Shown piece by piece: positions 5,927 through 43,058 of a stretch of 64,000 nt of DNA. Numbering within the stretch: the first letter of the stretch is position 1; every line of letters starts with the position of its first letter. A model generated the notes under the pieces. That model was not told the origin of the DNA. It did not search any database and saw only the letters and a list, made by a program, of their open reading frames with translations. The stretch lies in IMG/VR virus record IMGVR_UViG_3300045988_170206, positions 32,001 to 96,000 of that record; one strand, given 5' to 3'. The DNA comes from a virus. Position numbers and translations under genes: made by a program.

Positions 5927-5940
5927 TTGCTTAACCTTTC

Positions 5941-6723: not shown

Positions 6724-6814
6724 TGGGTCATTTGCCTTTGCGTGAGCGTGTGCGTGTTGTGGATGTCGATGAGGGCAGGGGAGCTGGCATGTTGCTCCCC
6801 TGCCCTCGAGCGGA

Positions 6815-7780: not shown

Positions 7781-7804
7781 TCTTCGGTGTCTTTCTGTGT
7801 CGAT

Positions 7805-16727: not shown

Positions 16728-16752
16728 GGAGAAGGTTCCTTTCTTTTGGGGG

Positions 16753-18999: not shown

Positions 19000-19082
19000 A
19001 TCTGCTCCTTCTGGCTGATGTTTCCTGAACAATCCTAGCATTTTCCAGGTGCCCCTCTTCTACTTGTATCGGGGCATGTCGA

Positions 19083-19143: not shown

Positions 19144-22100
19144 TCAGTTGTCCGCGTTCTTGCGTCGGCGTGCCAACACGATCAGCGCTGCGGCTGCTGC
19201 GAGGATGCCGCCTGCGGCGCTGGTTGCGAGCACGTGGTGGCGGATCCAGTTGATGACCTGCCCGAAGGTGGAGGCGTTGACATACACGTCGCTGATAGTC
19301 GTCTCGGTGACGTTGCCTGCCATGTCGGTGGCCTTGAGGACAACCGTGTGCGCGCTCGTGGACTGCGGCAGAGTGCCCGTGTAGATCCCATTCTCGTCGG
19401 AGAGGAGCTGCATAGGCTTTCCGTCCACCTGGGCCTCGAGAGTCACGGTGGTCATGTCTCGGGGGGTGACGGTGAAGTCGCGGCTTTCGGAACGGTAGGC
19501 CGCGTCGGTTCGGATGCCGGACACCTGGAGCTCAGGGTTCGTGGAGTCCACGACGAAGGAGTAGCTGAGGCGGCTCACCTGGTCGAGGCCTCCCTCAGTC
19601 TGGGAGACAACCTGGATGAGGTAGGTGCCTTCCTTCTGGAATGCTGCCTTGTCGATGTGGTAGGCGTACACGTAGTCCCCGGCGTCTCCGCCCGTGCGGG
19701 TGGTGGACTGGAGCGCGGGGGCGACGGGGTAGGGTGCGCCGTCGAGGGTGACCTTGATGTCGGTCTTGTCCTCGTTGAGGGCTTCGACGGTGGTCTCCTC
19801 GAGGTCAACGTCCACGGGGGCTTGGAGGTAGCGGCCCTGGTAGTTGGTGCCGGTCACGTCCACGTTGGAGCCGTAGCGGTTGAGGATGAACTCGACGCTG
19901 GCGGTCTGGTCGTTGCCTGCGAGGTCGGTGCCCTTGATGGTGAGGGTGTAGAGGTCGTCGTACTTGGCTTCATCGGGGATCTCGGAGAGGTCGAGGTAGC
20001 CGCCGCTGACTGCGGGCTTGAAGACGTTGCCCTTGCGGCCTACGAGGACGGCGGTGACGCTGCTCGTGTCCGCGTTGGTGTCACTGTAGGTCACGCCGAC
20101 GGTGGGGAGCTGGTAGTAGGCGGTGCCCTTCGTGAGGCCACTGATGCTGATTTCCGGCTTCGTGGTATCGACGATGAACTCGCCTTCGGTGACCTCGTTG
20201 CTGGGGTTGCCTGCCTGGTCGGTGGTGCGGAACCCGAAGGTGTGGACTCCCTCGGGGAATGTCACGGTCGCCGTGTGCGTGGATCCGACGCTGCTCCAAC
20301 CACTGATGCTGCCGGTGCCGGTGAGCTGGTTGAGGGCGGGGTCGAAGTGCTCTTCGACGACGGTGATAGTGGCAGTACGTACTTGGTTGTAGTACTTGCC
20401 GTTGCGCACGTCGGTGGTGTTCCAGGCGACGGAGACGACGGGGGCTACCTTGTCTACGGTGAAGCGGCCCGATGTGAAGGTGTTGGACTGGTGGCCCACC
20501 ATGTCCGCTGCGGACAGGGTGAAGTCGTAGTCCGTGTTGTCGGAGAACGTGATGGTGTTCGTCCAGGTGTCGCCGGAGTGGACCCATGTGCCCCACGTGC
20601 CGACGAGGCCGGTGGTGGTGAGGCTACCGGGGTCGAAGTTGTTGTCGCGGACGGTAACCGTGGCGTGGCGGTCGGTGTTGTAGAAGCCGGACTGGTTGGT
20701 CTGGTCGAACGTGACCGTGAGCTCGGGGGCGGTTGCGTCCACGCTGATGGTGCGGCGCGTTTCGGCCTCGTAGCCAGCATTGTCGGCGACGTGGATCCAC
20801 ACATCCTGAGCGGGGTATTCACCGGCGAGCGTCAGGGGGACGGATACGCCGGTGACGAGGTTCTTGTCGGTGGCGGTCACCTGGACTGCGGGGTTATCGA
20901 CCTGGCCGTCGGGGGAGACGGTTGCAGTACCCAGGGTTGTGTCACCGTATCCCCAGGTGAGGGTACGGATGCCAGAGTGTGTGGCGACGGCGGTGAGAGT
21001 GCCGGATGCGGAGTCCTTGTAGAGGGGCACGCCAGCGCTGTTGGTCGCTGCTGGGGCTCCGAGTTCGACGCTCAGGTCGGTGCTGGTGATCGTCGTGTTC
21101 GAGTCCTCGGACACGAGGCCGTCGGGGCGCTGGCTGTCGCTGATGTTGCCCACCTTGTCGGTGGCGGTAGCGGACACGAAGCCCTTGAAGCCGCTGGGGA
21201 TGTCGAACTCGGCCACGCCGGAGTTGATGGGGGCCGACTCGGTGCGGATGACGGTGCCGGACGGCGTGTAGAACGTCATGAGAGCGTTACCCATGCCCGA
21301 AGATGGGGCGGGGTCGGAGACCTGAGCCTTGATGCGTGTGGCTCCCTGAACGAACAGGCCGTAGCGGTCGGAACCGTTGATGGTCTTGCCCGGCGCGTAG
21401 GACGGGTTCACGACGACGAAGTTCGTGATCGTCGGTGCCTGGTCGTCCACGTAGAACGTGTAGTTGCGGGCACTGACGTTACCTGCGAGGTCAGTCATGG
21501 TGATGGTGACCTGGTAGGAACCATCCTCCGCGCGTGCGGCTTTCGCGTAGTCCACGTCGAGGGTTCCAGTAGTAGCGGCTTCACCGGCCTTGTCGCTGGG
21601 GTTGACGGTGGCGACTTGGGTGCCGTTGACGGTGGCTGTCATGGTGGCGATGCCATTGTCGTCGTGGGCGGTGAAGCTGTTGATCGCCCCGCTGGTTGAT
21701 GAGAACCATGTCCCATCCGTGGCAGTGATGTCGGTGGTCATCGTGGGGGCCTGAGTGTCCACGGCTGCGTGCTTGGATGGCCAGCCGAGTGCGGTTGCGA
21801 CGTGGAGTGTCTGGGAGCGGCCCAGCGGGTCGGTGACGGTGACGGTGGGGTCGTTGACGCTGCCGGTGATGGTGGCAACGCCGTCGGGGGAGACGGTCAT
21901 GCCACTGCTGGGGTCGTTGTAGGTCTGCGCGAGGCCACCGCCGCCCTGTGGGGTGAGCTGCACCTGGATGGGGGTGCGGGAGAACACGCCGTAGGGGGTG
22001 ACGTTCATGTCGCCGGGGTTGCGGACAGTGGCGTTGATGGTGGCCTGGCTGGTGGATGTGGAGATCGTGCCGGTCCAGGAGGTGCGGTGGAGGCCGCGGT

Positions 22101-23535
22101 CTGCGCCGTAGAAGTCGATCTGGTGGCGCGTGCCGTCGGTGAACTCGGACGCGGGGATCGTGAAGGTGTACTTGTTGTCGGCTTCGCGGGTGGGGGCGAT
22201 GGGGCGACCGTCGAAGATGAGGCTCATGCCGCGCGGGGAGAGGGCCTGGTCGTCGCTGAATGTGAACGTCAGGTCTTCTGTGGGGGCGGAGGTGAGCCAG
22301 TACTGGCCGTCGCCGAGGGTCTTGGCGTTGGTGATCGCGTCGGGGACGGTGAGGGTGGGGATGGTGGAGTCCACGGCTACCACGTCGGTGTCGCCGCCGG
22401 TGAAGGCGCTGAGACCGACCTCGTTGGTGAGGCCTGCTTCGTCCATGGTCTGTACCTTGTAGGTGCCTGCTTCGGTGATCGTGAATGTGAAGTTGCCGCC
22501 CTGGCGCTTGAGGGTGGTGACAACTTCGCCGTCCTTGACGAGCTCCACGGAGTACACGCCCGATGGGCTGTCGGTGGCGGTGCCGCTGATGGTGACGTTG
22601 CCGGAGGTGGCGTAGTCGCCGTATGCGTTGACCTGGCCTCCGGTTGCGCGGAGGTTGGAGAACTGCGGGCCTTCGTCGTCGTAGGGGACGTTGATGGACT
22701 GGCTGGCGGTGCGGCCAAACTCGTCGGTGATGCGCAGTGTGGCCTTGCTGGGCTTGCCAGTCAGGTTGATGGTGGCGGTGGTGCCGCTGACGCTCACCGA
22801 GTAGCCCTCATCGGTCGTTGCGGACACGATCTGCGTGTCGGAGCTGATCGTTGCCGTGAGGGCGGGGATGGTTGTGTAGAAGCCCCATGCGGGGCCGGTG
22901 GCCGGGTCGAGCATCATGGCTGTGATCGACGGTTCGCCGACGGTGGTGTGTGCGCCGAGCGTGAAGGTCGTGTTGTCCCACGTGACGGTGGGGGTACCGG
23001 ACGCGGGGACGCGACTGGTGCCGACAGTGTAGGAGCCGTCCGCGAGCGCGAGCGCGCCGGAGTCCGTGGGGATGACTCCGGTCATGGTGATGGGTGTTGC
23101 TCCGGTGTTGGTGGCGAGGATGCCCGCAGCGTACACGCCCTTGTCGGTGTGGACGATGTAGACGATGCGTGTGGGGGCTGTGATGTCGGTGGGGAGCTGG
23201 TTCACGCCCGCTGTCCCCTGGCCTGCTGCGGTGAGCGCGCCGGAAGCGTCGTAGCGGCGCATTTCGACGCTGGTGATCGTTGCGCCGGATTGTGGGGCGA
23301 TGGTGGCGGTGCCCCGCCACTTGCGAACCTGCGAGTAGTTGCCGAGGTCGAAGTCAACGGACGCTGTAGGGGCGGGCGCTGCGGTGACGGCTGCGGGTGC
23401 GACGGTGGCGGCGGGCTGGGTGGTGCCGAAAGCGTTGGTGGCGAGCGCTGCGGGTGCGACGGTGGTGGTGGCTGTGGCGAATGCCAGGAGGGCAGCGATG
23501 CGCACTGTCGTCTTGGTCGTCTTCCGGGGAGTCAT
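19144..23535 (-). CDS. Giant surface adhesin (1463 aa) built of tandem Ig-like modules
   Basis: Signal peptide. At least 8 modules of about 90-110 aa, each ending in a (T/A)Dx(A/V)GNx(S/T) motif (TDLAGNVS, TDKVGNIS, TDQAGNPS, TDMAGNVT...). C-terminal TM followed by RRRKNADN. Confidence 0.8.
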   Translation of the reverse strand: MTPRKTTKTTVRIAALLAFATATTTVAPAALATNAFGTTQPAATVAPAAVTAAPAPTASVDFDLGNYSQVRKWRGTATIAPQSGATITSVEMRRYDASGALTAAGQGTAGVNQLPTDITAPTRIVYIVHTDKGVYAAGILATNTGATPITMTGVIPTDSGALALADGSYTVGTSRVPASGTPTVTWDNTTFTLGAHTTVGEPSITAMMLDPATGPAWGFYTTIPALTATISSDTQIVSATTDEGYSVSVSGTTATINLTGKPSKATLRITDEFGRTASQSINVPYDDEGPQFSNLRATGGQVNAYGDYATSGNVTISGTATDSPSGVYSVELVKDGEVVTTLKRQGGNFTFTITEAGTYKVQTMDEAGLTNEVGLSAFTGGDTDVVAVDSTIPTLTVPDAITNAKTLGDGQYWLTSAPTEDLTFTFSDDQALSPRGMSLIFDGRPIAPTREADNKYTFTIPASEFTDGTRHQIDFYGADRGLHRTSWTGTISTSTSQATINATVRNPGDMNVTPYGVFSRTPIQVQLTPQGGGGLAQTYNDPSSGMTVSPDGVATITGSVNDPTVTVTDPLGRSQTLHVATALGWPSKHAAVDTQAPTMTTDITATDGTWFSSTSGAINSFTAHDDNGIATMTATVNGTQVATVNPSDKAGEAATTGTLDVDYAKAARAEDGSYQVTITMTDLAGNVSARNYTFYVDDQAPTITNFVVVNPSYAPGKTINGSDRYGLFVQGATRIKAQVSDPAPSSGMGNALMTFYTPSGTVIRTESAPINSGVAEFDIPSGFKGFVSATATDKVGNISDSQRPDGLVSEDSNTTITSTDLSVELGAPAATNSAGVPLYKDSASGTLTAVATHSGIRTLTWGYGDTTLGTATVSPDGQVDNPAVQVTATDKNLVTGVSVPLTLAGEYPAQDVWIHVADNAGYEAETRRTISVDATAPELTVTFDQTNQSGFYNTDRHATVTVRDNNFDPGSLTTTGLVGTWGTWVHSGDTWTNTITFSDNTDYDFTLSAADMVGHQSNTFTSGRFTVDKVAPVVSVAWNTTDVRNGKYYNQVRTATITVVEEHFDPALNQLTGTGSISGWSSVGSTHTATVTFPEGVHTFGFRTTDQAGNPSNEVTEGEFIVDTTKPEISISGLTKGTAYYQLPTVGVTYSDTNADTSSVTAVLVGRKGNVFKPAVSGGYLDLSEIPDEAKYDDLYTLTIKGTDLAGNDQTASVEFILNRYGSNVDVTGTNYQGRYLQAPVDVDLEETTVEALNEDKTDIKVTLDGAPYPVAPALQSTTRTGGDAGDYVYAYHIDKAAFQKEGTYLIQVVSQTEGGLDQVSRLSYSFVVDSTNPELQVSGIRTDAAYRSESRDFTVTPRDMTTVTLEAQVDGKPMQLLSDENGIYTGTLPQSTSAHTVVLKATDMAGNVTETTISDVYVNASTFGQVINWIRHHVLATSAAGGILAAAAALIVLARRRKNADN

Positions 23536-23560
23536 TCTTGAACCTTTCCGATGATGGGGT

Positions 23561-24211
23561 TTATTGCCAACTATGGGCTTCTGCTACCAAGGTTACGCGA
23601 CTGAGCGGGTCGGTTGGCTGCGCGGATGGTTGTGGCGCAAGGTTTGCGGCAGGAATCTCGGTGTCCTCGAAGAAGGCAGTGTCTGCTTCTTCGGTGGTTT
23701 CCGTGCTTGCGTCTGAGAAGAACGTGGTGTCGTCGTCTTCTCCGACGTTAGCGGAGCGCTCGAGCGGTGCCGGTGCGGGTGGCTGTGTGGTTCGCGTGGG
23801 GGTGTCTGCGACCTGTAGGGGTGCAGGCTGAGCTGGCGCAGGCTTGGGGGCGGCAATGGGCGCAGGGGCGACTGTGGTGGGCTGTGGTGGGGTTGGGGTG
23901 AGGTCGCCGGAGAGCACGCCGCTTGTGTCGTCGGCGAGTGTACCGCTATCGAACGAGTCACTGTTCGTCGCGTCGTTCAGGGGCGAGTGTTCACCGAGAG
24001 ATAGGGCGGACATCTTGCGGTACGCTTCGACGGCTCCGTCGCTACTCAGTGTCGAGGTGAGGGTTTCAACGGTGTCGGTGAACGCCTGTCCCTTGAGTTC
24101 CCTGCGTGCTGCTGGGATGTCCCATTGGAAGAACAGGATGAGAGCGGTGAAGAACAGGATGAGGGCTGCGACTGCGAGGCCGATTGCCGTTGCGGTGAAT
24201 ACGGTCATCAC
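23561..24211 (-). CDS. N-terminally anchored protein with a Pro-rich, acidic cytoplasmic tail
   Basis: TM IGLAVAALILFFTALILFF. ATGA overlap with the kinase stop. Confidence 0.7.
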   Translation of the reverse strand: MMTVFTATAIGLAVAALILFFTALILFFQWDIPAARRELKGQAFTDTVETLTSTLSSDGAVEAYRKMSALSLGEHSPLNDATNSDSFDSGTLADDTSGVLSGDLTPTPPQPTTVAPAPIAAPKPAPAQPAPLQVADTPTRTTQPPAPAPLERSANVGEDDDTTFFSDASTETTEEADTAFFEDTEIPAANLAPQPSAQPTDPLSRVTLVAEAHSWQ

Positions 24212-25920
24212 TTGGTGGCTCCTTCGGCTGCGTACACAGCATCGACGAGGGTGCGGGACTGGTCGAGCTTCGTGGAGAGCTGGGCTGACAGTTCAGCCGG
24301 TCTTCCTGGTGTCGGGTTGGGGTGCTGCGTGAGGTAGTCTTTCGCGCGCTCGAGCTGCGCGTCAACGTCGGCTTTGGGCACGCCGTCGGTTCGGAGCCTG
24401 TATGTGTAGTTGTTGATGCAGTCCACGATGTAGTTGAGGAGCTGCAACTGTACGACCTCGCCGGAGTTGTCGGTGTTGAGGCTGGTGAGGTTGTTCCAGT
24501 AGGCCCGGTACATGCCGGTGTCGCTGCTGGTTTGGATCGCGGATGCGATGTCGCGGTTGAACGAGCCCATGTTGTAGAGGGCGCTCGCCTGTTCGACGTT
24601 GTAGTTGCCGCTGATCGCGTCCTTGAACCATGGGGCGGATAGGGCGAGGCCGTCGGCGTTTGCGTCGCTGGTGTAGAAAAACCAGTAGAGTTCACCGATC
24701 TGGTAAGCGAGCTCAGGGTAGCGCGGGTTGTCCTGAATGTCCTTAATGTGTTCGCGGACGAGGGGGATGAAGGCAGCTTCCTCAGCGGAGGTGAACCTGC
24801 CGTCTCCCTGCTTGATGGCGGTAATCGTGTCGAAGTATGAGTCGATGTTGGAGGGGCGCGCGTTGATGACTGGCTCCCACGCTTCGACGGTGCCGGCTTT
24901 TTGGGCAGCGCTGGTTAGTGCTGCGTAGGAGTTCGCGTCGGCGTTGGCCCCGTAGGTGTAAGTGCCCGCTGACGCTATTGACATGACGAGGGCTGCTGCT
25001 GCGAGCGCGCCGACGGTGCGGATGCGCCTGCGGTGCTTGGCTCGGTGACGACTATCGGCGGTCTTGTAGGTGTTGAGCGCAGCGATAACTTCGACCATGG
25101 ACGAGTAGCGGTCATCTGGGCGCAGGGCGACACATTTGGCGATCACGTCGGAGAGGGCGCGGCTAACTTCGGGGTTGGCTGCGTGCGCGTCCACGGGGCC
25201 TGTGGGGATGCCCCTGCGGTCGGACGCGGGAAGGTCGCCGACGAGGAGCTGGTACATCGTCATACCGAGGCTGTAGATGTCGCTTCGGATGTCGAGCGGC
25301 GCGCCCTTGGTGATCTGCTCGGGGGGCGCATATCCCTTGGTGCCGAGGGCGTGGGTGTTGATCTGATTGTCAGGGGTGATGACTTCGGCCAGGCCGTAGT
25401 CCATGAGCACCATGGAACCGTTCTGGTACATGATGTTCTTCGGCTTGATGTCGCGGTGGACGACAGGGCCGGGGTGAATATGTGGCGGGAGGGTGTGGAG
25501 GTACTGGAGGATGGTGGCGACCTGCACCATCTTGGAGACAACGAACTGCTCACTGAACCGGCCTTTGTCGGTGCGCTTGGCCGCATCAGCGAGGTCGTAG
25601 CCGCCGATGTAGTCCATGAGGACGGAGTACTTGCCACCCGGCTTGTCGGTACGATCTCGCACGTCGAGGATGCGAGGAATACCGGGGTGGGTGAGGGGCT
25701 GCATGAGGCGCGTTTCGCGCTTGAGGCTATCAACGGCGATTTTGCCGCGGCCTTTAGGGTCGGGGACGGGAGCTGCAACCTCTTTGAGGACGACGAGCTT
25801 ACCGTTCTTAGCGTCGGAAACTCCGTACACCTGGCTAAAAGTGCCGTTGTGGAGTACGGAGCTGATGACGTAGCGGTCCCCCTTGCCGAAGGTTGAGCCC
25901 TTTTTGCGCAGGTTCGTCAT
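24208..25920 (-). CDS. Hanks-type Ser/Thr protein kinase with one TM and an extracytoplasmic domain of about 250 aa that is not PASTA
   Basis: VVLKEV (Lys), HRDIKPKN, DYG, GTKGYAPPE. TM VGALAAAALVMSIASAG. Start MTNLRKKG overlaps the PP2C stop (ATGA). The track ORF extension to 26073 is rejected. Confidence 0.9.
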   Translation of the reverse strand: MTNLRKKGSTFGKGDRYVISSVLHNGTFSQVYGVSDAKNGKLVVLKEVAAPVPDPKGRGKIAVDSLKRETRLMQPLTHPGIPRILDVRDRTDKPGGKYSVLMDYIGGYDLADAAKRTDKGRFSEQFVVSKMVQVATILQYLHTLPPHIHPGPVVHRDIKPKNIMYQNGSMVLMDYGLAEVITPDNQINTHALGTKGYAPPEQITKGAPLDIRSDIYSLGMTMYQLLVGDLPASDRRGIPTGPVDAHAANPEVSRALSDVIAKCVALRPDDRYSSMVEVIAALNTYKTADSRHRAKHRRRIRTVGALAAAALVMSIASAGTYTYGANADANSYAALTSAAQKAGTVEAWEPVINARPSNIDSYFDTITAIKQGDGRFTSAEEAAFIPLVREHIKDIQDNPRYPELAYQIGELYWFFYTSDANADGLALSAPWFKDAISGNYNVEQASALYNMGSFNRDIASAIQTSSDTGMYRAYWNNLTSLNTDNSGEVVQLQLLNYIVDCINNYTYRLRTDGVPKADVDAQLERAKDYLTQHPNPTPGRPAELSAQLSTKLDQSRTLVDAVYAAEGATK

Positions 25921-26618
25921 GCTAGTCCTTCCGTTGAGGCGAGTAAAGCGGTGATGTTGTCCTGTTCTCCCGCTGTTTGTGCGCGCGTAGCGAGGTCGTT
26001 GAGGCCTGCTTCTGTGAGAGCGTCGAGCTTGTTGCCGACGGCCTCGTAAGCGTGCCAAAACCCGTCTGAGCATAGGAGGAATGTGTCGCCACTCTGGTAG
26101 GTGCCGGTGTAGATGTCAGGGGTGTGACCGTCGGCTTTGGGCTTTCCGAGTGCGCGGGTGATGCGGCTGGCGTAGGTGCGGGCGATGTCGGGGGTGATGG
26201 TGACTCCGCGGCGCTTGAAGGCGTTGAGGGCTGAGTGGTCCTCGGTGAGCTGTGTGCCCTCGAGGGTGCCTGCTGGGATCTTGTAGGCGCGGGAGTCGCC
26301 GATTTGGAGGATCCAGTACTGGCCGTCGTAGAGGCGTAGGAGGGTGAGAGTTGTACCTCCTCCCGTGTCGGTGACCTTCTGGTGGGCGGTGGTGACGGCT
26401 TCGATGAGGGTGTCGTCAGTGATGTCTCCGGCCTTGATTGCGTCCATGTAGGTGCGGGCGGCGCTTTGGGAGGCTTGTGCGCCGTTGGCGACTCCGCCCA
26501 TGCCGTCGGCGATGAGTGCGAGGATGCCGGTCTTGCCGTCGGCGGTGAAGGTGGCCCAGGCGTAGGTGTCCTGGTTTTCTTTTCGTTGGTTGCGGTGGGT
26601 GATCGTGTGGACGCTCAT
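25917..26618 (-). CDS. PP2C-family Ser/Thr phosphatase
   Basis: RKENQDTYAW, ADGMGG and CSDGFWH motifs. Confidence 0.85.
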   Translation of the reverse strand: MSVHTITHRNQRKENQDTYAWATFTADGKTGILALIADGMGGVANGAQASQSAARTYMDAIKAGDITDDTLIEAVTTAHQKVTDTGGGTTLTLLRLYDGQYWILQIGDSRAYKIPAGTLEGTQLTEDHSALNAFKRRGVTITPDIARTYASRITRALGKPKADGHTPDIYTGTYQSGDTFLLCSDGFWHAYEAVGNKLDALTEAGLNDLATRAQTAGEQDNITALLASTEGLA

Positions 26619-27740: not shown

Positions 27741-29222
27741 TCACTTTCCGCTGGAGGGGTTTCCGGCGAGGACGCGGAACCAGATCGGATTGGTGGATCG
27801 GTCGTAGGAGGCTCCCCAGATGAGGTAGAGCTCGGAGAGTCGCGTAGAGGAGGTCCAGGACTCGAGAGTCCCAGATTCACCTGGCGCGAGGGTAACGCTG
27901 TTCGTGAGGCCGTACACGGTGCCGGTCCTGGTGTAGGGGTTGCGTGTGGCATCGACGAGGGTGTCGTCGGGGGTGAGTGTGATGGTCTCGGTGCCGAGGT
28001 TGCGGACCTTGAACGTGTAGAAGGCGTACTGCACTTCGCTCGCTTCGACGAAGCCTCGGTTTTGTGCAGACTTTTGGCTCATGGCGCGGAATGCGTCGGG
28101 GCCGGTGAGGAACGCACTGAGGGTAACTTCGATGGGGGTGTCGGTACCGTCGGTGGTTTTGACGACGACGGGCGTGTTCAGACCTGCGGGAGCGTTGAAG
28201 GTGCCATCTCCAACTCGGGGGAGCGCGCTCGTATCAGGCAGGGATCCGTCTTGTCCTGCACTGGTGAGGGCGTGTGCGCCGATCCAGTTGGGCTCGGTGT
28301 AGTAGTTATCCGCGTATTTGCGGCTGGTTTTGGCTTCTTCGGTGTCTTCGTCGCGCGTGGTGGCGGTAGTATGCTCGGGATCGAGAGCGTCTACGGCGAG
28401 TTCGCTGAATGTGTCTTGGAGCTTGTGGAAGCTGTCGGACGCGAACAGGGTGTCATCCATATACACGTCCTCAGCGCTGGAGAGTCGGCAGGAGGAGCCG
28501 AGGCCGGTGCCGGTGCAGTCCATGACGGGAGGGCGGCTGACGGTGGTCGTGGGGAGGTTGGCGGCGTTGGCTGCAATGTAGCTGGCGAACGCATCCGTGA
28601 CTTTACGGCTGAACTCCACGTCGCTGATCGACGTGAGCTTCGCTTTGGCGAGCGCGTCCTTCACGCCGGTCTTGTCGAGGGTGACTGCCCCGTAGTCTAC
28701 GAGCTGGAAGTCCACGTTCTCACCGTTGTTGAGCGTCGAGGGGGCGGTGGTGGGTTTCCAGGTGAAGGGGTTGCGGTGGGGCTGGCCTGTCCAAGTGAGC
28801 TGCCCAGTTTCAGGAAGCTGGTAGGTGACGGTGGCGAGGATGGCTCGCACGGCGTTGGTGCGTGCTTCGTTACCGTTGAGGTAGTCGTACTCCCGCGCCA
28901 CCCAGGACTGCTCGATGACCGAGTTGAGTCCGTCGGTGTCGAAGTCGTGGAGGGCCGTCATGTAGGGCACGAACGTGGAGGTGCCTTTAGCGGCCTCGGG
29001 GAGGCTCTTCGCCGGCGGGACAATGACCCCGAAGTAGGTGCCGATCAGTGCGACGGGCACTAGGGCGATGAGGGAGCGCTTGAGGAGCTTCTTCTTTCCG
29101 CGCTTCTTCTTGGCTGACGTTGCAGGTGTAGCGGGTGACCCCCACGAGTCCCAGGCCTCGCCTTGCGCGGGCACGTTGTTCTGCATGGGGGTGGTGGGGA
29201 TGTTGGTGTCCCAAGAAGCCAT
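27741..29222 (-). CDS. Single-pass membrane protein with a large ectodomain (C-terminal DUF4352-like Ig fold)
   Basis: KKKRGKKK followed by TM LIALVPVALIGTYFGVIV. C-terminal FKVRNLGTETITLTPDD...LAPGESGTL pattern. Confidence 0.7.
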   Translation of the reverse strand: MASWDTNIPTTPMQNNVPAQGEAWDSWGSPATPATSAKKKRGKKKLLKRSLIALVPVALIGTYFGVIVPPAKSLPEAAKGTSTFVPYMTALHDFDTDGLNSVIEQSWVAREYDYLNGNEARTNAVRAILATVTYQLPETGQLTWTGQPHRNPFTWKPTTAPSTLNNGENVDFQLVDYGAVTLDKTGVKDALAKAKLTSISDVEFSRKVTDAFASYIAANAANLPTTTVSRPPVMDCTGTGLGSSCRLSSAEDVYMDDTLFASDSFHKLQDTFSELAVDALDPEHTTATTRDEDTEEAKTSRKYADNYYTEPNWIGAHALTSAGQDGSLPDTSALPRVGDGTFNAPAGLNTPVVVKTTDGTDTPIEVTLSAFLTGPDAFRAMSQKSAQNRGFVEASEVQYAFYTFKVRNLGTETITLTPDDTLVDATRNPYTRTGTVYGLTNSVTLAPGESGTLESWTSSTRLSELYLIWGASYDRSTNPIWFRVLAGNPSSGK

Positions 29223-31307: not shown

Positions 31308-32573
31308 TTACTTCTTCGCGTTCTTGTCGGCGAATCGCGCGAAGTTGATGGCACCTTCAATGTTGAGGGTGCGCAGGTTGACGCCCTCCTTGATGGGGAG
31401 GAGTTCGATGTCGGGGGCGAAGGAGCGGACCTGACGTACAACCGACTCAGCGATGGGTTCCATCTCTTCTGCCCTGTCGAGAGAGGGGTCTGTCTGTTCC
31501 GTCTTGATCGCGCCGCCGCCTATGACGAGGAGGTAGGCGAACTCATCGGGCGCGAAGCGGTTGGCTTCGAAGGTGTTTCGCAGGTTGGCCGTGATAGTGC
31601 CTGCAACCTCGTTGCGGGCGGCGTTGACCTGGCGGGACACGTCCTTGCGCTTCACGCCTGAACGGATGGTGCCGGTGAGGACCGCTTCTGTGGCGGCTTC
31701 ACGGGAGAGTGCGCGACCGTGTTCCTGGTGCACGTACTTGGCGACCAGGGAGGCAATGGTGTTGCCGCCAACGGGGTAGGAAGCGGACGCGGACGTAATG
31801 GGGTTGAGGTTCTTGATGAACGTCACGTCGGCAGTGCCGGCCCCGAGGTCGAGGACAATGATCGGCTCGTTTACACAGTCTGCATAGTCGGCGACTGTGC
31901 CCATCGCAGGAGTGAAGACGGTGGCACTGAAGCCTGCCAGACCCTCCGCGAGGACGGACACGTCGCCCACCTTGATCGGGATGCTGACACGCTCAGGAGC
32001 GATGACCTCCACGCTCTTCGAGAGCGTGAAGATCTTCTTGAAGGTCTCTCCCTTTCCGGTCTCGCTGGGCGGGGCGAGGAGAGTCACGTCCCAGGTGATC
32101 TCCAGAGACTCCGGCTTCTTACGCAGGAGCTTCGCAACGAGTTCACGCCCGACGAAGACGGCGTAGTGGAAGCTCCACAGTGTCGTCTCGGACTGTGCCT
32201 TCGTCGCAATGGCAGAACTGGGGCGTGTTGCCGACATGGCGAACTCTCGGTCAGCGAGAGGCCCTGCGGCGTACAGGTGAGTTGGTTCACCAGCTGCGAG
32301 GCCCTGGGGTGCCCGGAAGATGATCGAGCGGAGCTCGTTGGGCTTGCCATTCACCTCGTCGGCGACGTACTGCTCTGGGATTACGTAATCGTCCCCGATG
32401 GCCGCGAAGGCGTTGGGGAGGATCGTGATGGGGCTGGCCTTGCCGTTCACGAGGACAGCAACTCGGGTTTCCGAGTTGCCGAAGTCGATAACCAGGCGCG
32501 CCTGCACCTTGGTCTTGGTCTGCTCACTCACTGCGCTGCCTTTCTGTCGGTTTTTCTGCGCTGTTTGCATCAT
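31308..32573 (-). CDS. Actin-like ATPase of the ParM/Alp (plasmid segregation) type
   Basis: Phosphate-1 LVIDFGNSETRVAV, phosphate-2 IVLDLGAGTADVTFI, adenosine motif LLVIGGGA. Confidence 0.75.
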   Translation of the reverse strand: MMQTAQKNRQKGSAVSEQTKTKVQARLVIDFGNSETRVAVLVNGKASPITILPNAFAAIGDDYVIPEQYVADEVNGKPNELRSIIFRAPQGLAAGEPTHLYAAGPLADREFAMSATRPSSAIATKAQSETTLWSFHYAVFVGRELVAKLLRKKPESLEITWDVTLLAPPSETGKGETFKKIFTLSKSVEVIAPERVSIPIKVGDVSVLAEGLAGFSATVFTPAMGTVADYADCVNEPIIVLDLGAGTADVTFIKNLNPITSASASYPVGGNTIASLVAKYVHQEHGRALSREAATEAVLTGTIRSGVKRKDVSRQVNAARNEVAGTITANLRNTFEANRFAPDEFAYLLVIGGGAIKTEQTDPSLDRAEEMEPIAESVVRQVRSFAPDIELLPIKEGVNLRTLNIEGAINFARFADKNAKK

Positions 32574-37078: not shown

Positions 37079-37318
37079 TCAGTTGTTGCGCACGGTGTAG
37101 CGCAGTGGGTGGCGGTCGTGGATGAGGACGGGGCGGGCGAGTGCTTCCTTGAGGCGCTGGTGTGCGTTGTTGAGTTCTTGGAAGGCGTGGGGGTCGCCGC
37201 CCCTGTCGGGGTGGAGGGTGCGAGCTCGGGCGCGGAACGCTCGGTTGAGGTCGGCGAGGGTCGCGGTGGAGGTCACGCCGAGGAGCTTGAGGTCGTGGGG
37301 GTTAGGGCGGGGGGTCAT
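37079..37318 (-). CDS. Stand-alone J-domain protein (79 aa)
   Basis: LLGVTSTATLADLNRAFRARARTLHPDRGGDPHAFQELNNAHQRL with the HPD tripeptide. ATGA overlap with the giant ATPase gene. Confidence 0.85.
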   Translation of the reverse strand: MTPRPNPHDLKLLGVTSTATLADLNRAFRARARTLHPDRGGDPHAFQELNNAHQRLKEALARPVLIHDRHPLRYTVRNN

Positions 37319-40300
37319 GCTTGTTCCTTGTTCTTCATCTGCTGGCGGTAGTTGGCGATGCCGCCGCCGATCATGGAGGCGAGGCTGCGCACGCCCCTGG
37401 ATGCGACGTTGGCGGCTCCCATGGCGAGGGTGCCGGTGAGGCCTGCGGTGATGCGCCAGGTCTTGCTCAGGCCTCCGAGGTCGGTGCGCTGCCAGGTCTT
37501 GCGCGTGTAGTCGCTGGCGTTGCGTTGGCCTGTGGAGAGGATGTGCGTGGCGGCGGACATGGCGCGCTGCATTTCGTCGTAGCGTCGCACGCCTGATGGT
37601 GTGCCGTTGATGGTGCTCCAGGTCTGGCGGTCGAACTCTTCGCCTTCGATGCTGATGTGCTGGAGGAGCGGCATGTCAGCGAAGAGCTGGGAGATTGACG
37701 AGTCGGGCTTGTACCCGAGGTCGGGGCAGACGTAGGAGCAATAGAAGTCCCAGGAGTCGAAGGACAGTCGGCGCAGGTTGGGCATCTCCCGTAGGACGGT
37801 CCAGTTCATGATGGGCGCGATGTTGGAGGAGCGGATCGCGTCGGTCATGTACGGGGGGATGACTTGGTTGTTGCGCCAGTCGTCGGTTACCTGGGTGCGG
37901 TAGGCGACTCCGTTCATGATGATGGTTTCGCCGACGACTCCGACGCGCTTGACGCGAGCCCAGGTGCCGGCCCATTCGTTCATGTCGGCGTAGAGCGCTG
38001 CTTGCACTGCGTCGGGGGTCATCTCTGTGGGGGTGATGGTGCGGGGGGTGCTGGTGTTGAACTCGTAGCCGCCGCCGGTGGTGGGTCGCACGGGGCTGGT
38101 GGAGTAGTCCCATGTGGGGGCGGGCGCGTCGGGTTCGTCGGGCATGGCCATGCGGTCGGCGTTGGGGTCGGTGGTGTCGTCCATGTCGGGGACGGTGGGG
38201 GCCGGGGGCATGGGTGGCGGTGGGGGGACAGGTGGGATTGGCGCAGTGGGTGTGGCGACGGTCGGGGGTTGGGGGATCGCTGTGTGCGCGTCTTGGGTGT
38301 CGCTGGCGGCGCGCTCGGCGGCTGGCTTATCGTCGTCGCCGGTGAGGCCGCTCATGTCCCACTCTTCTGCGTCGCTGCCCGCGAGCGCGAAGCCGCTGTT
38401 GGTGTCTTCTGACTCGAAGGCCTGGGGGTAGACGTGACGGAATAGGGTGACGGACTGGGGATCGTACTCGTAGCCCTGGAAGACGTTGTAGATGTCCTCG
38501 ACGGAGGCGATCCACTGCGGGCGCAGGTCGGACACCCATTCTTGCCAGGTGCCCTCGTAGCCGAGTTTGCGGACGGTGAGGTTCGCTGCGTCGGAGAGCT
38601 TCTGGAGTGTGGCCGCGGCTTGCTCGCGGGTGACTCCGGCTTTCGCGAGGTAGCCCTCAAAGCCGAGGGAGGGGTCGAGCTCGCCGGTGTCGGTGGACAC
38701 GTCGCGTCGGACGGCTTCTACGTCCACGCCTGCACTCTTCATGTAGGAGATGGAGTTGTTCCAGCAGTAGCCGTCTTCACTGCCGTCGGCGAACAGGAGG
38801 CCGGGGCGCAGGTAGGTGGCGGTGCGCGCGACGGATTCGTCGCCGTTCATGATCTTGTGGATGTTATCGCCGCTGAATCCGGGGAGGTAGGCGAAGCATC
38901 GCATGGTGGAGGACAGCTTGTCGGAGGCGTAGGAGCCGGGGGTGAGCTGGTTCAGGTAGTTGCGTCCAGGGTGATGGCCGATGAGCACGTCGGTCTTGCC
39001 GATGGAGGCGTAGCTGTAGATGAAGTTGTCAGCCTCCTTGAAGGGGATCGAGATGTTCTTCGTGCTGGCGTTGAGCGGTTTGCCTGCGGGGAAGAACTGG
39101 CCGATGTCAGTGACGGGGTTGACGGGATCCTGGCCGATCATGAAAACGCGGGAGCGTTTGGCTTCGGCGTTGTTGAAGCCTGCGTTGCGTAGCTGGGATA
39201 GTTTCTCGAAGGAGCGGCGCATCATGAAGTACATGCTGGTAAACCACAGTTCGCCGGGGTTCACTTCCTGCTTGGGCTTCTTCTTGTCGTCGAAGTCGGA
39301 CTGCTCCCACGCGACCCACTCGGACTCGTAGTTCGTGTAGCACATGTGGCCTTGCATGTTGGACTGGAAGAACGTCTGGATCTGCTGGTTCGTGTTACTG
39401 ATTTCATCGAACACGATGCAAATACCGTCTTTTCCGCCTAGTTGTTCAGCGATTTCGGGGCTGATTGTGCGGGCTGCGAGCATTCCGAGCGCGAGGATCA
39501 TGTATCGCAGGTAGACGACGGTGCCGAGGGTGCCCGTGTAGCCGGGGGCCCACGCGAGGTTGTTCTTGTTCAGGTACTCGGGGATGTGGGCGCGGGCTTC
39601 GAGCTCGGCGACCTTTGCTGCCGTGTACTGCATGAACATGTCCGTACCCTCTTCGGGGTTGCTGGCGATGTTCGAGCCGTTGATGACGAAAGCGTCGGGG
39701 TTGATCGACAGGAGAAGAGAGGCCATGTCGGGCTTGTTGTCGCCCAGGCCCGGCGCGATGCCGGCGATGAGGTGCATTGCAAGGATCGTCTGCGTGGTCA
39801 GGCCCTTACCGGATCGGGAGCCCGCGAAGATGCCGTGGCTGGTGTGATCGTTGAACTGCCTGATCTCCTTGCCGGTGGTCACTACGTCATCATCGAGGCC
39901 GATGCCGAGGATCATGTTGCTGGCGCTGGGCTTGCGTCCCTGGCGTTGCATCGCGTCGAGGATCTTGCCTGCCCACACGGGTGAGGCGTTGGCGAGTACC
40001 TTGTCCATGTCGTGCCGGAACTCCCAGAAGATCCCCTCGTTGATGGGGTCGTAGTTCTGGGCTGTTGTGCCGCCTGCGAAGCCGAGGGCTTCGACGATGG
40101 CGCGCTCGACGATGTTCTCGCTGAAGCCTTCGTAGGGGGTGAGGACTCGGACCTTGACCTTGACGGGGATGTTGCTCGGGGAGTTGTCGTAGGCGGAGAC
40201 GAGGACGCACGTCGTCATGGCCTTGTAGATGCTCTCGAGCGCGCCGACGACCTTGGTCATCATGGAGGGGTCGTGGTAGGCGAGGCCGTTGTCGGCTTCG

Positions 40301-41895
40301 CTCTTGAGGAGGGCGCGGACGACGGCGGTGAGCATGGCTTGCAGGCTCTTCTTGACTTCGCGTTCGCGGTAGGTGTCCCAGGAGGATGCGTCGCTGTGGC
40401 GGGGGTAGAGGTCTTGCGCGCCGTCGTTGGACTCTCGTCCAAAGGCATACTCGAGCATCTTGTAGGGGAAGTAGAAGCGTGTGCCGTTGGGGTAGGTGTT
40501 GCCCTGGCGGTCCTTCCCGTTAATCAGGATCTCGGCGATCTCGTTGATGTTTCTCGTCGGCATGGGGGTCAAGTGCTGCGCTGCTTGGATCTGTTCCCAG
40601 AGGCGCAGGAGGACGAGGTTGTGGGTGCGCTGGTAGGCGCGTCCGTCGGAGGAGAGGGCCATGAGTCGGCCTTGGCCTTCTTCGTCGCAGGTGAGGACAC
40701 CGGCGGGCTGGAGGACGCTGTAGCCGGACTTGAAGATGCGGTCGTACTCGTCGAGGATGCTTTCGGCGCGGGCGACGATCTGGCCTTGGTAGAAGGTCAT
40801 GGCCTCTTCGGGCACGTTGTCGCCGGCGGTTTCACCATTGAGGGCTGCGAGTACCTTGTCGATGGTGATGTCGCGGGTGATCTTCTCGAAGCCCAGGTTC
40901 GTGCGCGCATCCTGGGGGAGGGAGGCGAGGTAGAGGGCGGCTGAGCGTTCGTCGCTGGCTGCGTCAAGGAGGATGCCGCGGCTTTGAGAGTTGACCTTGG
41001 AGGCGAGTGCCTTGTGGTTGGCGAGGGTTGGCCACCATCCTGGCTGCGTGTCGAGGTCGGTGAGGTCGCGACACTGGGAGGCCATCGCCGCCGTGTAGGG
41101 CTCGCCTTTTTCGAGGCTGGCTTTGAGAAGGGCCAGGATCTTGGTGTGGTGGGGGCTGGTCTCGAAGTCGTGGAGACGATCAGCGAGGTCGTCGCCGGGG
41201 GTGTCCTCGTCGGGCGCGGGGATGCGGGCGGGCGCGTCCGTGTCGGTGTCGTCGCGCATCTGCTCGCGCTTGGGGGCCTTGAGGGAGGACAGGTAGGTCT
41301 CGAGGGTACCGCCGATCTGGTCGGAGGCGTAGACGTTGGGGGCGAGCTGGTAGGACTCGACGACCTGCGCGAAGGGGCGCAGTTGCGTGTAGTGGCCGTG
41401 TGTGGCGAAGTCGGTGGCCAGAGCGAGGCGCGCGCCTTCGGGTGCGTCGGGGATGAGGGGGCGGGGGTCGCCTTTCGCGCCGGAATGGGCCGACATGTAG
41501 GCTTCGCGTTCGAGGCGCAGGCTCCGGGCGATCTGCTCGATGGGGGGCATGATGTCGTCGGGGATCTGGTAGTAGCCGCCAAGGCGCACGCCTTCACTGA
41601 ACATGCTTTCGACGTTGACTCCCTCGAACATGCTGGCGGGGGCGACGATGGCTTCGAGTGCGCCGAACTGCTTGTGGGAGAGGGCGCGCAGCGGAGACTT
41701 CGACGTGGAGGAAGGTTTCGTGGCGGCGCGCGTGAGCTCGCCCTTCGTTTTGCCGTGACGTTCCACGTACACGCCGTCATGGGCGATGATGAGGGTCTTG
41801 ACCGTGTTGGGGGTCCATGTCCCGTAGTCGGTGCCGTCGCCGTCGGTGATGTAGTGGCCTCCGAGGGCCTTGATGGTGTCGTCGTAGGTAGTCAC
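37315..41895 (-). CDS. Giant (1526 aa) soluble P-loop protein with a TraG/VirD4- or FtsK-HerA-like ATPase core, a Pro-rich linker and a distinct C-terminal domain
   Basis: Walker A FAGSRSGKGLTT, Walker B ICIVFDEISN about 120 aa later, then RVFMIGQD. No N-terminal TM. PPVPPPPPMPPAPT linker. GTG start. Confidence 0.6.
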   Translation of the reverse strand: MTTYDDTIKALGGHYITDGDGTDYGTWTPNTVKTLIIAHDGVYVERHGKTKGELTRAATKPSSTSKSPLRALSHKQFGALEAIVAPASMFEGVNVESMFSEGVRLGGYYQIPDDIMPPIEQIARSLRLEREAYMSAHSGAKGDPRPLIPDAPEGARLALATDFATHGHYTQLRPFAQVVESYQLAPNVYASDQIGGTLETYLSSLKAPKREQMRDDTDTDAPARIPAPDEDTPGDDLADRLHDFETSPHHTKILALLKASLEKGEPYTAAMASQCRDLTDLDTQPGWWPTLANHKALASKVNSQSRGILLDAASDERSAALYLASLPQDARTNLGFEKITRDITIDKVLAALNGETAGDNVPEEAMTFYQGQIVARAESILDEYDRIFKSGYSVLQPAGVLTCDEEGQGRLMALSSDGRAYQRTHNLVLLRLWEQIQAAQHLTPMPTRNINEIAEILINGKDRQGNTYPNGTRFYFPYKMLEYAFGRESNDGAQDLYPRHSDASSWDTYREREVKKSLQAMLTAVVRALLKSEADNGLAYHDPSMMTKVVGALESIYKAMTTCVLVSAYDNSPSNIPVKVKVRVLTPYEGFSENIVERAIVEALGFAGGTTAQNYDPINEGIFWEFRHDMDKVLANASPVWAGKILDAMQRQGRKPSASNMILGIGLDDDVVTTGKEIRQFNDHTSHGIFAGSRSGKGLTTQTILAMHLIAGIAPGLGDNKPDMASLLLSINPDAFVINGSNIASNPEEGTDMFMQYTAAKVAELEARAHIPEYLNKNNLAWAPGYTGTLGTVVYLRYMILALGMLAARTISPEIAEQLGGKDGICIVFDEISNTNQQIQTFFQSNMQGHMCYTNYESEWVAWEQSDFDDKKKPKQEVNPGELWFTSMYFMMRRSFEKLSQLRNAGFNNAEAKRSRVFMIGQDPVNPVTDIGQFFPAGKPLNASTKNISIPFKEADNFIYSYASIGKTDVLIGHHPGRNYLNQLTPGSYASDKLSSTMRCFAYLPGFSGDNIHKIMNGDESVARTATYLRPGLLFADGSEDGYCWNNSISYMKSAGVDVEAVRRDVSTDTGELDPSLGFEGYLAKAGVTREQAAATLQKLSDAANLTVRKLGYEGTWQEWVSDLRPQWIASVEDIYNVFQGYEYDPQSVTLFRHVYPQAFESEDTNSGFALAGSDAEEWDMSGLTGDDDKPAAERAASDTQDAHTAIPQPPTVATPTAPIPPVPPPPPMPPAPTVPDMDDTTDPNADRMAMPDEPDAPAPTWDYSTSPVRPTTGGGYEFNTSTPRTITPTEMTPDAVQAALYADMNEWAGTWARVKRVGVVGETIIMNGVAYRTQVTDDWRNNQVIPPYMTDAIRSSNIAPIMNWTVLREMPNLRRLSFDSWDFYCSYVCPDLGYKPDSSISQLFADMPLLQHISIEGEEFDRQTWSTINGTPSGVRRYDEMQRAMSAATHILSTGQRNASDYTRKTWQRTDLGGLSKTWRITAGLTGTLAMGAANVASRGVRSLASMIGGGIANYRQQMKNKEQA

Positions 41896-42526: not shown

Positions 42527-42761
42527 GAGTGGTTCCTTCCTATCCCCACGGTGGGGGCTTGGGTTTGGTCTTCTGGGTTACGAGTATCCATCGTGGGGAG
42601 CGTCATGAGTGTAGCGGCGCACCCAAGGGTGGACATGTGCCCATCATGCCACACAAACTCAGACGTGCACGAACTGGACAGGCCATTCGCAGCGTAAATG
42701 TGCGAGATGCCTAGACGTTCTGTGCTGTTAGGCGCAGATATGTTGCCTCAGAGGTGAGGGG

Positions 42762-42861
42762 GTAGTCCAAGTTTTGGATGACGTTCACCACCCAAGCAGG
42801 TCACTTTTTCGGGGGGGGGTAGTCCAAGTTTGAGACGACCCCGTAGTCCAAGTTCTGGACG
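42762..42861 (+). promoter_or_regulatory. Three direct copies of GTAGTCCAAGTT(N)(T/G)(G/A)GA(C/T)G in the divergent hub (candidate operator or promoter element)
   Basis: Copies at 42762-42780, 42819-42837 and 42843-42861. A G9 run at 42811-42819 abuts copy 2. Confidence 0.5.
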
Positions 42862-43058
42862 TAAACGTATATAGAAACCATTGAAGATAAAGAACTACCC
42901 CCTCTAGTCCCCCAAGCCGTTCACGCGAGGCTGTCCAAAGCGCATGGCTGGTTGAGCAGGCGCGCGCTTCGCGCACGCGAGCGAGAGACACACGTAGTTG
43001 AATTGCACACAAAGGGAGGTGTGTGTAGACTGACGATCACCAGAAAGGAAGGAGCAAC

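Follow-up and report, generated by a model that had tools for sequence, protein, structure and literature searches.

A giant ATPase of pXO16-like giant elements as a putative, very divergent FtsK-type motor

The window, a stretch of 64,000 nucleotides from the IMG/VR virus record IMGVR_UViG_3300045988_170206, encodes on its (-) strand a protein of 1526 amino acids (aa), hereafter the giant ATPase, whose only match in annotated records belongs to a ~350-kb Bacillus plasmid and which we propose to be a divergent motor of the FtsK/HerA superfamily. A first-pass annotation had described the open reading frame (ORF) at 37315-41895, a single Walker A (SRSGKGLT) and a single Walker B (IVFDE) motif and a poly-Pro linker, and had read the product, with its TraG/VirD4-like P-loop, as an atypical coupling or translocation ATPase or as a member of another HerA/FtsK-clade family. 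The ORF, which starts with GTG, is present as described; the two motifs fall at aa 693-700 and 827-831, and the Pro-rich stretch at ~aa 1205-1245, with a maximum of 16 Pro per 40 residues. The ~640-aa N-terminal region, which had been left as one block of unknown function, resolves into a module at aa 17-221 shared with the pXO16 protein RS28220, a variable region at aa 222-364 and the beginning of the core at ~aa 365. The coding sequence and its parts are laid out as follows:

37315..41895, (-) strand: coding sequence of the putative giant FtsK/SpoIIIE-like ATPase, 1526 aa (from the ORF, its motifs, the pXO16 ortholog and dN/dS)
41233..41847, (-) strand: N-terminal module, aa 17-221, homologous to the N-terminus of RS28220 (jackhmmer seeded with RS28220)
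40804..41232, (-) strand: variable, weakly conserved region, aa 222-364 (column occupancy 0.07-0.36 in a 148-sequence alignment)
38401..40803, (-) strand: family-wide core, aa 365-1165 (conservation profile, AF2 model m557d931c9784, Foldseek)
39802..39825, (-) strand: Walker A AGSRSGKG, aa 691-698 (R694, G696, K697 and G698 invariant; preceded by the invariant H687)
39721..39741, (-) strand: motif D719-N-K721-P722-D723-M-A on the strand after the P-loop helix (matches FtsK IDPKmlEL in hhalign)
39403..39420, (-) strand: Walker B strand CIVFDE, aa 826-831 (D830 and E831 at least 90% conserved)
39130..39138, (-) strand: IGQ, aa 920-922, at the end of a core β-strand (Q922 at least 90% conserved)
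38026..38328, (-) strand: low-complexity Pro-rich linker, aa ~1190-1290 (occupancy 0.2-0.47)
37471..38025, (-) strand: conserved C-terminal domain, aa ~1291-1475 (tblastn to pXO16 23502-24116, E 5.7e-9)
37351..37458, (-) strand: Gly/Ala-rich, mildly hydrophobic C-terminal segment, aa ~1480-1515 (position conserved, 35-55 residues from the end)

The GC content at third codon positions (GC3) of the ORF is 0.86, usual for genes of this 62%-GC window, and its ratio of nonsynonymous to synonymous substitution rates (dN/dS) is 0.11-0.18 against four natural variants on IMG/VR contigs; it is therefore a real gene under purifying selection. A motif scan of the 1526-aa sequence found no second Walker A-like motif besides the P-loop, which in full reads AGSRSGKG. 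On the Kyte-Doolittle (KD) scale with a span of 19 residues, hydropathy peaks at 1.71 at aa 790, between Walker A and Walker B; since aa 786-808 form a buried helix between these motifs in the structural model, with a predicted local distance difference test score (pLDDT) above 90, this peak is not a transmembrane anchor, and no 19-residue segment of 1.6 or more is found beyond the folded ATPase core. The Gly/Ala-rich C-terminal segment scores 0.79 in the window protein and at least 1.6, that is, transmembrane-like, in 26 of 148 relatives. Hence the earlier statement that the protein has no transmembrane segment holds for the window protein by this scale, and is not certain across the family.

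At E<=1 the giant ATPase reaches no family in Pfam, NCBIfam or PHROGs, and 36 diverse members of its family reach none of the ATPase families of Pfam, including those for type IV coupling proteins (T4CP), FtsK and HerA. Searches against PDB sequences (phmmer with the protein, hmmsearch with 5- and 36-sequence profiles) returned noise or nothing, and neither megablast against plasmids nor tblastn against phages gave a match. PADLOC returned none either, the neighbouring genes yielding generic ABC-ATPase matches only, and a reading as a defence system was rejected on that ground. A word-indexed protein search recovered just eight close relatives, the same set from the single sequence as from an alignment; one of them is a hypothetical protein of a Schaalia sp. 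metagenome-assembled genome (MAG), and the pXO16 protein was missed. Among GTDB species representatives a scan found a single locus; it belongs to a Mogibacterium MAG, and the gene is fragmented there. In contrast to the word-indexed search, exhaustive HMMER searching with a core profile recovered 446 representatives of clusters formed at 50% identity (E<=1e-3), of which 177 passed E<=1e-30; almost all are 1,100-1,800 aa long.

The P-loop motif G[ST]R[SA]GKG is present in ~145 of 156 proteins of this family, and together with D-x-KPD, DE and IGQ it forms the motif set of an ~800-aa core, which the window protein has complete. In an alignment of 36 sequences with a mean column identity of 16%, fourteen residues are invariant (P639, G664, H687, R694, G696, K697, G698, D719, K721, P722, D723, N739, R797 and D1123), and D830, E831, Q922 and R809 are conserved in at least 90%. 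Over 36-127 diverse members the catalytic residues are likewise invariant or at least 90% conserved, which, as read from the alignments, is the pattern of an active NTPase with its catalytic set intact. This set consists of K697 in Walker A, D830/E831 in Walker B, the FtsK-like motif series H-x-I-x-AG...GKG and D-x-K-P-D, and the conserved Q922, R797 and R809; Q922 is a candidate sensor residue.

A first AlphaFold2 (AF2) model, built from a 7-row alignment, had a pLDDT of 50.7 with the P-loop region unmodelled and was discarded. An alignment of 62 diverse family members gave a model of the core (aa 365-1165, 801 residues) with a mean pLDDT of 93.1 and a pTM of 0.90; the core comprises an N-terminal α/β part, an FtsK-like RecA-type ATPase with helical insertions and a C-terminal helical part; the Walker B motif lies on a β-strand at aa 825-830. 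The best Foldseek match of this model in the PDB is the Pseudomonas aeruginosa FtsK motor (2iut_A, E 9.5e-5, probability 1.0), and the second is TcpA, the FtsK-like coupling protein of the Clostridium perfringens plasmid pCW3 (6o1x/6o1w, E ~1e-3, probability 1.0). EccCb1-D2 comes next, followed by VirB4/TrwK, EssC, HerA and TdpAB, and then by generic RecA and F1 folds. The VirB4 and HerA structures, at E>=0.014, rank under FtsK, TcpA and EccC, so that VirB4/HerA (DUF87, AAA_10), for which there is no Pfam match either, is not the nearest structural neighbour; the 50 best PDB matches include neither TrwB nor VirD4. In BFVD, phage FtsK-like translocases are among the best matches (E 8e-8 to 1e-4).

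Profile comparisons by hhalign, with a 148-sequence family profile as the query and ATPases from R388, pTiC58, pCW3, E. coli and pXO16 as references, point the same way. Probabilities against single reference sequences were at most 7%, suggestive only, and these were replaced by small reference profiles. The family profile then matched the FtsK/SpoIIIE-like profile with P 2.7e-4 (probability 42%, 66 columns), the T4CP (TrwB+VirD4) profile with P 0.0087, the VirB4-like profile with P 0.024 and VirB11 with P 0.65; known ATPase families score 46-91% against each other. The aligned stretch, LG..G...H.I.AG..GKG...D.KPDMA, corresponds to the FtsK signature LG-x-D-x-x-G ... H-x-I-x-AG-x-x-G-x-GK with D-x-K-x-x-[EA]-L on the next strand. 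Here the Walker A motif lines up with FtsK PHLLVAGTTGSGKS, H687 with the His of FtsK PHLLVAG, and D719-x-K721 with the D-P-K of FtsK IDPK.

FtsK/SpoIIIE (PF01580; PDB 2iut) is thus both the best structural and the best profile match, with the RecA-type core and the motif series common to both. Unlike FtsK/SpoIIIE, however, the giant ATPase has no match to PF01580 at E<=1, ends its Walker A motif in GKG rather than GK[ST], is without an N-terminal membrane domain, carries its Pro-rich linker C-terminal to the motor instead of before it, and has helical insertions and large additional domains on both sides; no γ (KOPS-reading) domain of the FtsK kind turned up, although no search was aimed at it. 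As it fails PF01580, we do not file it in that family. Judging from the profiles and the modelled fold, it very probably represents a new, very divergent family of the FtsK/HerA superfamily, nearest to the FtsK/SpoIIIE/TcpA branch. The first-pass annotation had named profile searches and structure prediction as the way to place the core, with a different HerA/FtsK-clade family as its alternative: the curated profiles gave nothing, and the structural matches to FtsK, TcpA and phage FtsK models lead to that alternative.

The shared FtsK-like fold of EssC/EccC and the matches to EccCb1-D2 (9jv8, with the highest target TM-score, 0.51) and EssC (4lya) raise the question whether the giant ATPase might instead export proteins in the manner of type VII secretion, its substrates being the ~150-aa paralogs encoded downstream. 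Its length is comparable to that of EssC (~1,500 aa), arrays of ~150-155-aa paralogs lie 3' of the gene in pXO16 and in loci of the L054 type, and a wall hydrolase occurs in the gene string of relatives. Yet EssC/EccC proteins have three ATPase domains, an FHA domain and two transmembrane helices, against one P-loop domain, no FHA domain and no N-terminal transmembrane pair here; we noticed no WXG100-type gene, the window clade is without a paralog array downstream, and the upstream partners are nuclease-like. We therefore regard such an exporter as very improbable, and membership in type VII EssC proper was rejected for the single P-loop. As to the arrays themselves, they have no Pfam match, and extend directly 3' of the ortholog in pXO16 from 23 kb through 0 to 334 kb (L002, L003); those of low-GC relatives are exemplified by L054 13343-14301.

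The match in annotated records is BTF1_RS28215 (WP_000083855.1), a 1440-aa hypothetical protein of the ~350-kb Bacillus thuringiensis israelensis plasmid pBTHD789-1 (NC_018516.1), which is pXO16 (PMC6199540). It is a full-length ortholog that aligns end to end: its core shows 25.6% identity over aa 368-1168 of the giant ATPase (tblastn E 3e-54), the motifs GSRSGKG, D-x-KPDMA, V-x-DE and IGQ are shared, and the C-terminal domain and the Gly/Ala-rich tail are also present. The N-module is not fused to it; pXO16 carries this module on the separate upstream gene RS28220. When every window ORF was compared with the whole plasmid, at least 10 window proteins had pXO16 homologs, scattered and roughly colinear; because of these homologs, the window is, on sequence grounds, part of a pXO16-like giant element of a high-GC host. 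They include:

1085-5971, (-) strand: 1628-aa giant protein, pXO16 homolog E 6e-140 (two paralogous neighbours and a YdjM-type hydrolase also matched)
19144-23535: Ig-repeat giant protein, pXO16 homolog E 2e-118
24208-26073: Ser/Thr kinase, pXO16 homolog E 3e-75
27741-29222: ORF with a pXO16 homolog
31308-32573: actin-like, ParM-like protein with a pXO16 homolog
60750-62564: HNH/ParB protein with a pXO16 homolog

The closest named homolog of this 62%-GC element is in the Schaalia MAG. Other carriers of the giant ATPase are Bacillus pXO16, a contig assigned to a Mogibacterium MAG, and IMG/VR records catalogued as viral, where the family has loci on 47 contigs, the longest of 284 kb. In GC content the carrier loci run from 33% (pXO16) over 36-45% and 55% to 62%, and one family cluster was found repeatedly on 217-229-kb contigs from many samples. 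The family characterises giant pXO16-like elements of Gram-positive bacteria, and pXO16 is the only cultured carrier that we found.

Such viral records, together with the fact that FtsK/HerA-clade ATPases package DNA in some virus lineages, could suggest that the protein, as a virion motor, packages or ejects the genome of a giant phage or phage-plasmid. At 1.1-1.8 thousand aa, however, the family members lie far above the usual size of packaging ATPases of this clade, and there is no PHROG match. The authors of the pXO16 studies did suspect a phage-like nature of the plasmid, but obtained no plaques (PMC6199540), and the complete pXO16 record has no capsid, portal or terminase annotation anywhere. 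What these elements do encode, namely a block resembling a type IV secretion system (T4SS), pilins and giant Ig-repeat surface proteins, with a sortase in pXO16, is as in conjugative plasmids, and we consider a virion motor extremely unlikely. The IMG/VR loci L022-L068, catalogued as viral, likewise have T4SS-like, pilin and surface-protein genes; these carriers may be phage-plasmids, or else giant plasmids that were wrongly filed under viruses.

The element also encodes a transfer apparatus, which bears directly on the coupling function first ascribed to the giant ATPase:

129-8569, (-) strand, and on beyond the left edge of the window (L020 11014-20676): transfer block resembling pXO16 tip and pCW3 Tcp, colinear with pXO16

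In transcription order, the part within the window encodes a YdjM-type hydrolase, two paralogs, the 1628-aa giant protein (with a Walker A motif, GTYTQGKS, at aa 1015) and an NlpC/P60 hydrolase. The contig L020, reached via contigs that carry an identical NlpC/P60 protein, overlaps the left end of the window by 1,960 nt at 99.95% identity and continues the block with three proteins (319, 442 and 414 aa), a DUF87 ATPase of 773 aa (P-loop AETGGGKS; E 1e-122 to pXO16 RS29410), proteins of 355 and 51 aa, and an 829-aa PF01580 (FtsK_SpoIIIE) protein with hydrophobic segments at aa 167-205, a Walker A motif GEPRSGKS and 28% identity to TcpA (E 9e-11). The portion inside the window is colinear with pXO16 227->216 kb and the whole extended block with 227->204 kb, where pXO16 has 17 annotated coding sequences, including the FtsK/SpoIIIE protein RS29390, an NlpC/P60 protein and RS29445. 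Both blocks resemble Tcp-type systems of pCW3 in having a giant protein, a YdjM-type hydrolase, a wall hydrolase and an FtsK-type T4CP. Transfer of pXO16 is known to need a 25-kb tip locus of 16 coding sequences with two ATPases and the wall hydrolase TipB (PMC9673590, PMC6199540); its gene content suggests that this locus is the one at ~204-227 kb.

By these sequences, the element has its own transmembrane-bearing FtsK-type T4CP and its own VirB4/HerA-type ATPase. The first-pass annotation had seen no VirB4 homolog, and one, the DUF87 ATPase, lies just past the left edge; it had also allowed that its coupling assignment would fall if a canonical T4CP were found elsewhere on the element, as has now happened with the 829-aa PF01580 protein. 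Because this transmembrane-bearing protein sits in the transfer block of the same element, the giant ATPase is not the coupling protein of the apparatus, a role that fits the 829-aa protein. Nor does its gene belong to that block in pXO16 and 21 other divergent loci, where it stands in a separate conserved string with Rad50/Mre11-like, AAA_21 and RS28220 genes. The resemblance of the giant ATPase to VirD4/TraG goes no further than the superfamily and the P-loop itself, for which the GKG-type motif cited in the first-pass annotation proved correct (APTRAGKG in Agrobacterium tumefaciens VirD4, AGSRSGKG here); there is no Pfam T4CP match (T4SS-DNA_transf, TraG-D_C, TrwB_AAD_bind), no N-terminal transmembrane segment, no relaxase or T4SS gene beside it, and weaker profile similarity to T4CPs than to FtsK. 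It differs from TcpA, too, in lying outside the transfer block and in having no transmembrane anchor, with a separate TcpA-like protein present in the element. The family hidden Markov model (HMM), run against all pXO16 and window ORFs, revealed no paralogy with FtsK-like or VirB4-like proteins and did not detect RS29390.

A part in conjugation other than coupling has more to recommend it: the giant ATPase could be a second, accessory FtsK-like motor, standing to the coupling protein as TcpB stands to TcpA in pCW3, or it could belong to a module for DNA processing that needs no relaxase, loads on DNA and feeds a tip/Tcp-like channel together with an SbcCD-like nuclease and the RS28220 partner. 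TcpA is among its nearest solved structures, its gene lies on the strand of the transfer block ~29 kb upstream, a PcsB/CHAP wall hydrolase occurs within the gene string of low-GC relatives, and the Gly/Ala-rich C-terminal segment is transmembrane-like in some members. Moreover, neither a relaxase nor an oriT has been identified in pXO16, which nonetheless mobilises plasmids that have neither mob nor oriT, and chromosomal markers too (PMC9673590, PMC6199540); a motor that loads on DNA non-specifically would explain mobilisation without mob and oriT. On the other hand, BTF1_RS28215 (at 23.5-27.8 kb of pXO16) is ~180 kb from the probable tip locus, the tip-like block already has two ATPases (FtsK_SpoIIIE and DUF87), and hydropathy gives the giant ATPase no transmembrane anchor. 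On balance we consider a conjugative role unlikely, and improbable the stronger version of it, in which the giant ATPase, the RS28220-type partner, the SbcCD-like nuclease and a J-domain co-chaperone together constitute the missing relaxase- and oriT-independent DNA-processing machine of pXO16-type conjugation.

The gene string with the Rad50/Mre11-like, AAA_21 and RS28220 genes is co-directional and ends in the giant ATPase gene in pXO16, the P0008 contig (L010), the Mogibacterium contig (L009) and 20 divergent IMG/VR loci (L049-L068). From 5' to 3' it comprises genes for a Rad50-like protein (AAA_23), a small ORF, an Mre11-like metallophosphatase, proteins of ~250 and ~400 aa, a small AAA_21 ATPase, in the low-GC group a PcsB/CHAP hydrolase, the RS28220-like protein and finally the giant ATPase. 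The AAA_21 gene occurs in 21 of 22 divergent loci, and the RS28220 and Mre11-like genes in 18 each, all co-directional. In L054 the secreted PcsB-coiled-coil and CHAP peptidoglycan hydrolase is encoded at 5035-6378, between the AAA_21 and RS28220 genes. The homology of aa 17-221 of the giant ATPase to the N-terminus of RS28220 (jackhmmer, domain E 8.7e-23 after iteration) ties two products of this string together: an N-module of the RS28220 type heads many members of the family, and a 510-aa ORF upstream of the L049 homolog aligns to aa 3-368 of the giant ATPase. This sharing argues for a physical or functional partnership of the two proteins.

A second potential partner is encoded on the opposite side of the gene:

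37079..37318, (-) strand: 79-aa J-domain (DnaJ, HPD motif) mini-protein (PF00226, 37.6 bits against a cutoff of 27.8)

The ATG of this gene overlaps the TGA of the giant ATPase gene (GCATGA). A J-domain gene lies 0-208 nt downstream of the giant ATPase gene in 16 of 18 loci of the window clade and in L010, L049-L053 and L009, whose giant-ATPase homologs are just 26-36% identical to the window protein; the ortholog in L010 has a precomputed PF00226 assignment. No J-domain gene was detected beside the giant ATPase in the P0007 clade or the L054-L068 group, and that of pXO16 (RS30135) lies elsewhere on the plasmid, not beside BTF1_RS28215. In the P0007 clade two IS605 OrfB/Cas12f-like TnpB genes flank the homolog (L011 8680-9990 and 16579-17700), and a gene for a vWA/Ro60-like protein lies 3' of it.

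On its 5' side the giant ATPase gene is the first of the leftward arm of the window, close to a region that is a candidate origin, terminus or divergent-promoter operator:

42700-42899: GC content of 50% against a window mean of ~62%, the cumulative GC skew changes direction here, and the genes on the two strands diverge
42758-42782, 42815-42839 and 42839-42863: three copies of the 25-nt repeat GGGGGTAGTCCAAGTTTTGGATGAC

DnaK and DnaJ act on the lambda P-DnaB complex and on P1 RepA, and polyomavirus large T antigen has a J-domain of its own. By analogy, the giant ATPase could be a ring motor for replication initiation or origin remodelling that is loaded or released through the J-domain partner and host DnaK. 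Consistent with this are the stop-start overlap of the two genes and the conservation of their pairing over distant lineages, the ~900 bp that separate the giant ATPase gene from the 50%-GC dip with its repeats, skew turn and gene divergence, and the DNA-metabolism genes upstream in relatives. Nevertheless, ATPases of the FtsK/HerA clade are not known as replicative helicases or initiators, and pXO16 encodes a DnaB-like helicase, primase-type proteins and a clamp-loader-like ATPase of its own; most relatives carry the gene inside the long co-directional string, with no origin features visible, and the skew turn, a maximum on the + strand, is by itself no origin marker. An initiation motor thus appears rather more doubtful than a conjugative one, and quite improbable.

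In light of the above contextual and structural connections, we propose that the giant ATPase is a ring DNA translocase for the maintenance or processing of the giant element, a combined reading, based on the modelled fold and on analogy with known FtsK-clade motors, to which we give a probability of about 50%; the specific role in DNA maintenance is put forward more tentatively. Like other motors of the clade, it would assemble into a ring and spend ATP to move along DNA or to pump it. Most likely it would work with the SbcCD-like nuclease on the DNA of the element itself, for instance to segregate or resolve it or to process its ends. Host DnaK/Hsp70, recruited by the J-domain partner, could assemble, remodel or release the ATPase complex, and the Pro-rich linker, C-terminal domain and Gly/Ala-rich tail might anchor the motor on a partner or the membrane, in an arrangement that would mirror the anchor, linker and motor of FtsK.

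Several observations weigh against this proposal. The Foldseek matches have low TM-scores (query 0.20-0.24, targets 0.37-0.51) and modest E-values, the low scores resulting from a query that is an 801-residue multi-domain protein with insertions; the hhalign probability to FtsK/SpoIIIE is just 42%, and every curated HMM fails, PF01580 included, so that the placement in the FtsK clade is a remote one. The N-terminal and C-terminal domains are without an assigned fold. That the substrate is DNA rather than protein would follow solely from the nearest structural neighbours and the neighbouring nuclease genes, and homologs of Rad50, Mre11 and AAA_21 were not found in the 64-kb window, which means that the linkage is not universal. 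In addition, the conserved gene order could reflect genome-wide colinearity instead of functional coupling, and the PcsB/CHAP hydrolase in the string of low-GC relatives hints at a function that crosses the envelope.

Elsewhere in the window, genes for a sortase-type pilin (GramPos_pilinD1/SpaA), a DUF7507 surface protein and a 'phage tail lysozyme' (PF18013) are found:

15081-19041, (-) strand, and 57846-59039, (+) strand: pilin, DUF7507 and PF18013 genes, possibly for adhesion or wall remodelling in parallel to the aggregation region of pXO16

The general gene set of pXO16 and the window element is also that of the Inocles, ~350-kb elements of oral Streptococcus that encode gyrase, Pol III, a RecD-like helicase, sortase and LPXTG proteins and in which ORF orientation switches at origin and terminus (PMC12340149). 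The loci L054-L068, with 36-39% GC and a PcsB-like CHAP hydrolase, could belong to Inocle-like elements; the Inocle paper mentions neither pXO16 nor the giant ATPase (PMC12340149).

The general kind of protein described here, an FtsK/HerA-superfamily motor, is already known. What is new is the giant ATPase family with its architecture, its J-domain partner and its status as a marker of phylum-spanning pXO16-like giant elements; in the literature we found no report of pXO16 relatives outside Bacillus, or of pXO16-like elements beyond the Bacillus cereus group, nor of this ATPase. The plasmid, whose sequence has few database matches (PMC9673590, PMC6199540) and whose transfer is unusually efficient, has been dubbed 'almost 350 kb of terra incognita', and with at least 10 of its proteins recurring on a 62%-GC element it is no oddity of one Bacillus serovar. 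The giant ATPase family occurs on hundreds of metagenomic contigs, mostly of 100-280 kb and 33-62% GC, many of them filed as viruses, and as one of the best-conserved markers of the lineage it offers a practical means of finding and classifying pXO16-like elements. It also exemplifies a predicted FtsK-type motor in a new architecture, and provides a testable candidate for the unexplained DNA handling of these elements in a plasmid, pXO16, that is genetically tractable. Should the giant ATPase and its partners indeed form a machine independent of relaxase and oriT, this would explain the mobilisation of 'non-mobilisable' plasmids and of chromosomal markers as well as the fact that no relaxase has been found, and such a machine would be at work across giant elements that span phyla, apparently including those of human oral bacteria, as the contigs assigned to Schaalia and Mogibacterium suggest.

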